Assembly (NCBI RefSeq): GCF_003334405.1
Contig: NZ_QOWM01000017.1
Direction: 5' to 3' (one strand)
Source: Escherichia coli
Lineage (GTDB): Bacteria > Pseudomonadota > Gammaproteobacteria > Enterobacterales > Enterobacteriaceae
Length of the DNA: 64,000 nucleotides
The translations under genes and the position numbers were made by a program. Below, one piece after another: positions 14,777 through 15,769 of this stretch. Below the pieces are notes generated by a model, which saw only the letters and a list, made by a program, of their open reading frames with translations, had not been told where the DNA came from and ran no database searches. Each line of letters starts with the position of its first letter. Position 1 is the stretch's first letter.

Positions 14777-15769
14777 ATGAGTCAGAATACGCTGAAAGTT
14801 CATGATTTAAATGAAGATGCGGAATTTGATGAGAACGGAGTTGAGGTTTTTGACGAAAAGGCCTTAGTAGAAGAGGAACCCAGTGATAACGATTTGGCCG
14901 AAGAGGAACTGTTATCGCAGGGAGCCACACAGCGTGTGTTGGACGCGACTCAGCTTTACCTTGGTGAGATTGGTTATTCACCACTGTTAACGGCCGAAGA
15001 AGAAGTTTATTTTGCGCGTCGCGCACTGCGTGGAGATGTCGCCTCTCGCCGCCGGATGATCGAGAGTAACTTGCGTCTGGTGGTAAAAATTGCCCGCCGT
15101 TATGGCAATCGTGGTCTGGCGTTGCTGGACCTTATCGAAGAGGGCAACCTGGGGCTGATCCGCGCGGTAGAGAAGTTTGACCCGGAACGTGGTTTCCGCT
15201 TCTCAACATACGCAACCTGGTGGATTCGCCAGACGATTGAACGGGCGATTATGAACCAAACCCGTACTATTCGTTTGCCGATTCACATCGTAAAGGAGCT
15301 GAACGTTTACCTGCGAACCGCACGTGAGTTGTCCCATAAGCTGGACCATGAACCAAGTGCGGAAGAGATCGCAGAGCAACTGGATAAGCCAGTTGATGAC
15401 GTCAGCCGTATGCTTCGTCTTAACTAGCGCATTACCTCGGTAGACACCCCGCTGGGTGGTGATTCCGAAAAAGCGTTGCTGGACATCCTGGCCGATGAAA
15501 AAGAGAACGGTCCGGAAGATACCACGCAAGATGACGATATGAAGCAGAGCATCGTCAAATGGCTGTTCGAGCTGAACGCCAAACAGCGTGAAGTGCTGGC
15601 ACGTCGATTCGGTTTGCTGGGGTACGAAGCGGCAACACTGGAAGATGTAGGTCGTGAAATTGGCCTCACCCGTGAACGTGTTCGCCAGATTCAGGTTGAA
15701 GGCCTGCGCCGTTTGCGTGAAATCCTGCAAACGCAGGGGCTGAATATCGAAGCGCTGTTCCGCGAGTAA
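14777..15769 (+). pseudogene. rpoS: RNA polymerase sigma-S (RpoS) interrupted by an in-frame amber codon at codon 217 (TAG at 15425-15427)
   Basis: Track ORFs 14741..15427 and 15476..15769 are in the same frame and together give full-length RpoS ([11 protein letters not shown] ... NIEALFRE); the single stop replaces the Glu codon in ...[16 protein letters not shown]. Confidence 0.8.

Follow-up and report, generated by a model that had tools for sequence, protein, structure and literature searches.

An amber codon at position 217 of rpoS in a K-12-related Escherichia coli: a recurrent and most likely null allele

The question raised by this locus is whether an Escherichia coli rpoS gene that appears as two open reading frames is truly interrupted and, if it is, what remains of its product. 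We analysed a window of 64 kb (the whole stretch of 64,000 nucleotides), in which mechanical frame calling places two ORFs, 14741-15427 and 15476-15769, at the rpoS locus. Both lie in the same frame, their offset of 735 nucleotides being 245 x 3; the first opens 36 nt upstream of the true rpoS start and the second, of 97 aa, at an in-frame TTG that is codon 234 of the gene. Read on the plus strand from the ATG at 14777 to the terminal TAA at 15767-15769, the sequence (14777..15769, 330 codons and a stop) translates as full-length RpoS broken once by a stop codon (RMLRLN*RITSVD). This stop is a TAG at 15425-15427, codon 217 counting from the ATG at 14777, and the plus strand around it (15416-15436) reads CGT CTT AAC TAG CGC ATT ACC. 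On the basis of translation, sequence identity and Pfam domains, the reading frame is rpoS with one interruption, effectively a pseudogene or nonsense allele.

Comparison with other genomes identifies the change. The gene could be matched over at least 80% of its length in 5,401 of 5,426 complete E. coli genomes, and in all 40 of the best-matching genomes listed the window sequence is identical to the intact annotated rpoS at 992 of 993 nucleotides. In K-12 MG1655 the base equivalent to 15425 is G, giving GAG (Glu217). A 61-nt probe centred on codon 217 found a 100% match in only one of 5,407 genomes, with the other 5,406 in the 95-99% identity band; among the matches listed in that band, 14 of 14 were identical at 60 of 61 positions. 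These probe identities, with GAG in MG1655, indicate that the TAG is the derived state, a single G>T transversion at 15425 that is the sole disruption of the frame. The first-pass annotation had taken the two ORFs for one rpoS, interrupted only by a GAG to TAG change at codon 217, and the frame offset, the translation and the nucleotide comparisons bear this out in every part.

Relative to MG1655, the window rpoS carries only three substitutions (14873, 15425 and 15718) and no indel, and the proteins match at 328 of 330 residues, the differences being Q33E and E217*. Codon 33 (14873-14875) is GAG (Glu) in the window, as is typical of non-K-12 E. coli, despite otherwise K-12-like flanks; MG1655 has CAG (Gln) here, and the TAG found at this codon in some K-12 lines is absent.

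The chromosome around the lesion is close to that of K-12. From 14428 to 63997 the window is 99.89% identical to MG1655 over 49.6 kb, with 54 differences that mostly cluster in the rpoS-ygb and norVW segments. The norW-norV cluster (47743-49545) holds 35 of the 54 within 1.8 kb, flanked by 25 kb with one difference and 14 kb with none, a pattern suggestive of recombination in this patch. None of the other 45 K-12 genes in the span is truncated, and the MutS protein sequence matches at 100%, which rules out a low-quality, error-ridden sequence as well as a mismatch-repair mutator genome.

Judged by its different cas operon, Glu33 and an intact otnK, the strain itself is not K-12. Type I-E cas genes (cas7e to cas2e) and then a CRISPR array of 17 repeats at 61-nt spacing (3607-4630) occupy window positions 1-4630. 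These cas genes share only about 70% identity with the cas operon of K-12, whereas the chromosome from iap onward is 97-100% K-12-like; the locus has the appearance of an alternative I-E cas variant on a K-12-related backbone. The otnK/ygbK gene (18732-19994, minus strand) is an intact 420-aa ORF containing a G at 18843 that is absent from MG1655, where the product is annotated at 388 aa, so that it is the K-12 copy that is altered. Over window positions 1-25000 the best match among the 5,426 complete RefSeq genomes is 99.2%, to strain N18-04097 (NZ_CP047277.1). This closest genome has an independent rpoS lesion of its own, annotated as 'frameshifted', a further illustration of how frequently rpoS is lost.

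Gene order in the window, surE-pcm-nlpD-rpoS-ygbN...mutS, is that of annotated genomes and includes the polymorphic rpoS-mutS region. Directly upstream of rpoS, nlpD (13575..14714, plus strand) is an intact 379-aa ORF, annotated syntenically in N18-04097, ATCC 43889 and MG1655; in K-12, this gene houses the main rpoS promoter. Downstream, between rpoS and the convergent ygbN (15863-17227, minus strand), two strong plus-strand hairpins (15782-15818 and 15827-15854) are each followed by a U-run. A scan for consensus terminators did not detect these rpoS terminators, but RNA folding did, with a minimum free energy of -44.4 kcal/mol and z = -6.8 for the region 15782..15854. With these hairpins and the convergent ygbN behind it, rpoS ends its transcript, and there are no downstream genes on which the premature stop could be polar.

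To define what the truncated protein keeps and loses we mapped the Pfam domains on the repaired protein, which has the complete sigma-70 family set: region 1.2 (r1_2, residues 56-88), region 2 (r2, 94-163), region 3 (r3, 174-248) and region 4 (r4, 262-315). The part still translated (14777..15424, plus strand) encodes residues 1-216, with regions 1.2 and 2 and the first ~43 of the 75 residues of Pfam region 3, inside which the stop falls. Residues 217-330 are removed, and the untranslated remainder (15428..15769, plus strand), which contains the ORF 15476-15769, covers what remains of region 3, 3.2 among it, together with region 4. In an ungapped alignment of RpoS with E. coli sigma70 at an offset of +285, residue 217 corresponds to sigma70 residue 502 (Lys502), just upstream of the acidic region 3.2 finger at about 513-516. 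By this mapping, the 216-residue product lacks both region 3.2 and region 4, as the first-pass annotation had also concluded.

The regions lost are central to sigma function. In the sigma-70 family, the linker or finger of region 3.2 runs inside the RNA exit channel, and region 4 contacts the beta-flap and recognises the -35 element; a sigma factor missing both is unable to assemble into a normal, initiation-competent holoenzyme. From the loss of these two regions, E217* is most likely a null allele. RpoS 1-216 would form no productive holoenzyme, leaving the strain RpoS-null or nearly so. The general stress response would then be lost, with low catalase HPII, low glycogen and sensitivity to acid and oxidative stress in stationary phase, while nutrient scavenging would be improved as sigmaS no longer competes with sigma70 for core polymerase. 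A fragment that retains regions 2 and 3.0 might still act weakly at extended -10 promoters, or tie up core polymerase.

Several characterised rpoS alleles provide a frame of reference. A natural E243* mutation, also by G>T, accompanies low catalase activity in the VTEC strain N99-4390 (Dong et al. 2009, PMC2700278). Like the window allele it converts a GAG Glu codon to TAG and yields a truncated RpoS without region 4, but its stop lies 26 codons further downstream and most of region 3 is kept. As the window product is the shorter of the two, E217* would be at least as defective as E243*.

The K-12 rpoS(Am) allele at codon 33 resembles the window allele in being an amber codon in a K-12-like chromosome, suppressible in principle and revertible by a single base (PMC2700278). 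Its stop, however, precedes region 1.2, whereas that of the window follows region 2 and leaves codon 33 as wild-type GAG. Downstream re-initiation in rpoS(Am33) can reportedly yield an N-terminally truncated but active sigma. In the window, by contrast, the in-frame starts downstream of the stop are limited to codons 234, 255, 273, 280 and 313, and any product begun at these would be missing the regions for core binding and -10 recognition. An Am33-type allele with active re-initiation is ruled out by the position of the stop after region 2 and of these starts, all between codons 234 and 313. In the rpoS819 allele, 46 bp are duplicated at the 3' end, which lowers activity without abolishing it; the window allele is instead a single substitution, and an rpoS819-like 3'-terminal duplication or frameshift is ruled out because the gene differs from that of MG1655 by three substitutions and no indel. 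GASP and stab alleles such as rpoS819 nonetheless follow the same logic, in that lowering sigmaS eases its competition with sigma70 (Spira et al. 2011, PMC3240573).

The exact allele is not unique to the window. Among the 5,426 complete E. coli genomes the same TAG is present in one, that of O157:H7 strain ATCC 43889 (NZ_CP015853.1, locus A8714_RS23345), which has the stop at codon 217 and the same 216-aa product, and whose rpoS is annotated in RefSeq as a pseudogene with an 'internal stop'. This copy differs from that of the window at three synonymous positions in rpoS, and in ATCC 43889 the place of the K-12-type neighbour ygbN is taken by an O157-type rpoS-mutS region with a MarR regulator and a hydroxyarylic acid decarboxylase; the different genetic background implies that the two alleles are of independent origin. 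Papers that mention ATCC 43889 label the strain 'acid-tolerant' (intermediate), without linking this to rpoS. A literature search for E217, G649T or codon 217 in rpoS found nothing relevant.

A collection of about 15 billion proteins contains this exact 216-aa sequence from 120 public contigs, and the codon at position 217 is TAG in all ten of these that were retrieved. Together with ATCC 43889 and the window, the ten contigs represent ten distinct synonymous rpoS haplotypes, one of them shared by the window and at least one other sequence, and their rpoS-mutS regions fall into five or more layouts, among them K-12 type, O157 type and B2-like. This diversity indicates that E217* arose many times independently, and rules out the spread of one allele by descent. 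E217* is already known, both as a kind of mutation and, through RefSeq and more than 100 public contigs, as an exact allele.

As a baseline we looked up the exact products of ten other one-step nonsense truncations of RpoS: W148* (466 contigs), E174* (107), R180* (130), E184* (47), E197* (126), E200* (49), Q201* (109), E243* (124), Q257* (124) and E265* (152). With counts of 47-466 contigs each for these, against 120 for E217*, a mutational hotspot at codon 217 is ruled out; about 100 rpoS codons are one step from a stop, by 116 routes, and codon 217 is one of these, hit about as frequently as the rest. The contig counts, together with the literature, also bear out the first-pass annotation on the frequency of rpoS null alleles, which it called common in the laboratory and in some natural E. 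coli.

Other substitutions at the same codon are far rarer. The missense forms E217K, E217D, E217A, E217V and E217G were each found on one or two contigs, and no full-length RpoS with Gln, Tyr, Ser, Leu or Trp at position 217 was found among the ~15 billion proteins. Since Tyr, Ser, Leu and Trp codons are one step from TAG and two from GAG, this look-up tests pseudo-reversion, not suppression, and the absence of these four residues gives no sign that the amber was later repaired by pseudo-reversion. In metagenome contigs the TAG allele had no matches against 24 for the GAG allele, numbers too small to carry statistical power, and all 15 full-length metagenomic rpoS copies were intact. One human gut metagenome contig (OQDE01001823.1) has a partial rpoS with one gap relative to the wild type, and may represent a frameshift allele in uncultured material.

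We consider it very probable that the window carries a genuine spontaneous nonsense mutation (Glu217 to amber) in the rpoS gene of a phylogroup-A-like, K-12-related E. coli. A sequencing or assembly error, in which the TAG would be a miscalled GAG, would be compatible with the single base that separates the window from the intact rpoS of the listed complete genomes. Against this, 12,651 bp (12.6 kb) of the window, TAG included, recur without a single difference in an independently assembled Logan contig (SRR3989531_120) that is on record for two samples. This match is the chief evidence against misassembly. The window's remaining genes are all intact and show no indel-type errors, the same substitution is present in many unrelated assemblies, and substitution errors are rare in consensus assemblies, which leaves an artefact highly improbable. 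The first-pass annotation legitimately raised partial read-through in supE/supF backgrounds. A leaky or suppressed amber, translated by a supE/supF-like tRNA or by read-through at UAG-C, would make the allele attenuated rather than null, and this reading we regard as unlikely. In its support, the stop is an amber codon, and K-12 lineages are known with an amber at rpoS codon 33, where Gln, Tyr and Glu also occur (PMC2700278). Residue 217, being aligned with Lys502 of sigma70, probably tolerates substitution, and the near-identity of the window to K-12 makes a laboratory-related background conceivable. The strain is not K-12, however, and the only tRNA genes in the 64-kb window are Ser(GCU) and Arg(ACG), neither of them a suppressor; the usual suppressor loci, such as glnV and tyrT, map outside it. 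Amber suppressors are unusual in wild isolates, and basal read-through of UAG is about 1% or less. As regards the tRNA genes themselves, ARAGORN reports a minus-strand tRNA-Arg(tcg) at 63800-63871, which overlaps the plus-strand tRNA-Arg(ACG) at 63780-63856, argV in K-12, and is most likely a mirror-strand artefact.

The two fragments might alternatively be functional, either because sigmaS(1-216) is partially active or dominant-negative, or because a region 4 fragment re-initiated at the TTG of codon 234 completes a split sigma factor. The N-terminal piece does keep regions 2 and 3.0, and region 4 of sigmaS is an independently folding domain, with structures determined alone and fused to the beta-flap-tip helix (6FI7, 6IDO). 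An SD-like GGUGAU at 15460-15465 precedes the in-frame TTG at 15476; its duplex with the 16S 3' end is calculated at -9.1 kcal/mol, within the top 5% of rpoS positions, as against -6.5 kcal/mol at the native rpoS start. Its spacing from the TTG is nevertheless 10 nt, a long distance for this stretch of anti-SD, and TTG itself initiates weakly. The same GGUGAU is present, as ordinary coding sequence, in the wild-type rpoS of MG1655, and its place upstream of codon 234 is probably coincidental. E217* is also no commoner than truncations that leave very different fragments, so that no truncation point is preferred and nothing favours a split at codon 217 in particular, and the longer natural truncation E243* is phenotypically RpoS-negative (PMC2700278). 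On this evidence functional fragments are extremely unlikely, and we attach as little credence to the related idea that the amber creates a naturally split or re-tuned sigma, in which regions 1.2-3.1 bind core and act at extended -10 promoters or with a region 4 partner.

Returning to a genuine nonsense mutation as the preferred reading, the public counts bear on why such an allele would be present. Nonsense at codon 217 is roughly two orders of magnitude commoner than any single missense change there, a contrast (120 contigs against one or two) that is semi-quantitative, since contig counts are inflated by clonal lineages and re-sequenced strains. An excess of this kind points to selection for RpoS loss, and fits the signature of selection for loss of function. 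The window allele would be present because loss of RpoS was favoured under nutrient limitation, prolonged stationary phase or storage. RpoS loss is known to ease sigma-factor competition and improve nutrient scavenging, and its selection has been documented in chemostats, in cells fed poor carbon sources, during extended stationary phase and in stab or stored cultures (PMC2700278, PMC3484664, PMC3240573). A survey of 60,472 E. coli genomes places rpoS among the genes with many low-frequency deleterious variants (PMC10401003). Snyder et al., whose collection had been handled with care, put RpoS-negative strains at only ~2% and traced these to the laboratory (PMC3484664).

For general biology the allele brings nothing new, nonsense mutations in rpoS being a classic example of how self-preservation trades off against nutritional competence; the contig counts give a compact illustration of selection for RpoS loss and confirm published conclusions. 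For work with the strain itself the allele matters in practice. An RpoS-null background alters stress resistance, biofilm and curli formation, acid survival, catalase activity, metabolism and competitive fitness, and the presence of E217* is a warning that the culture may have evolved during storage.
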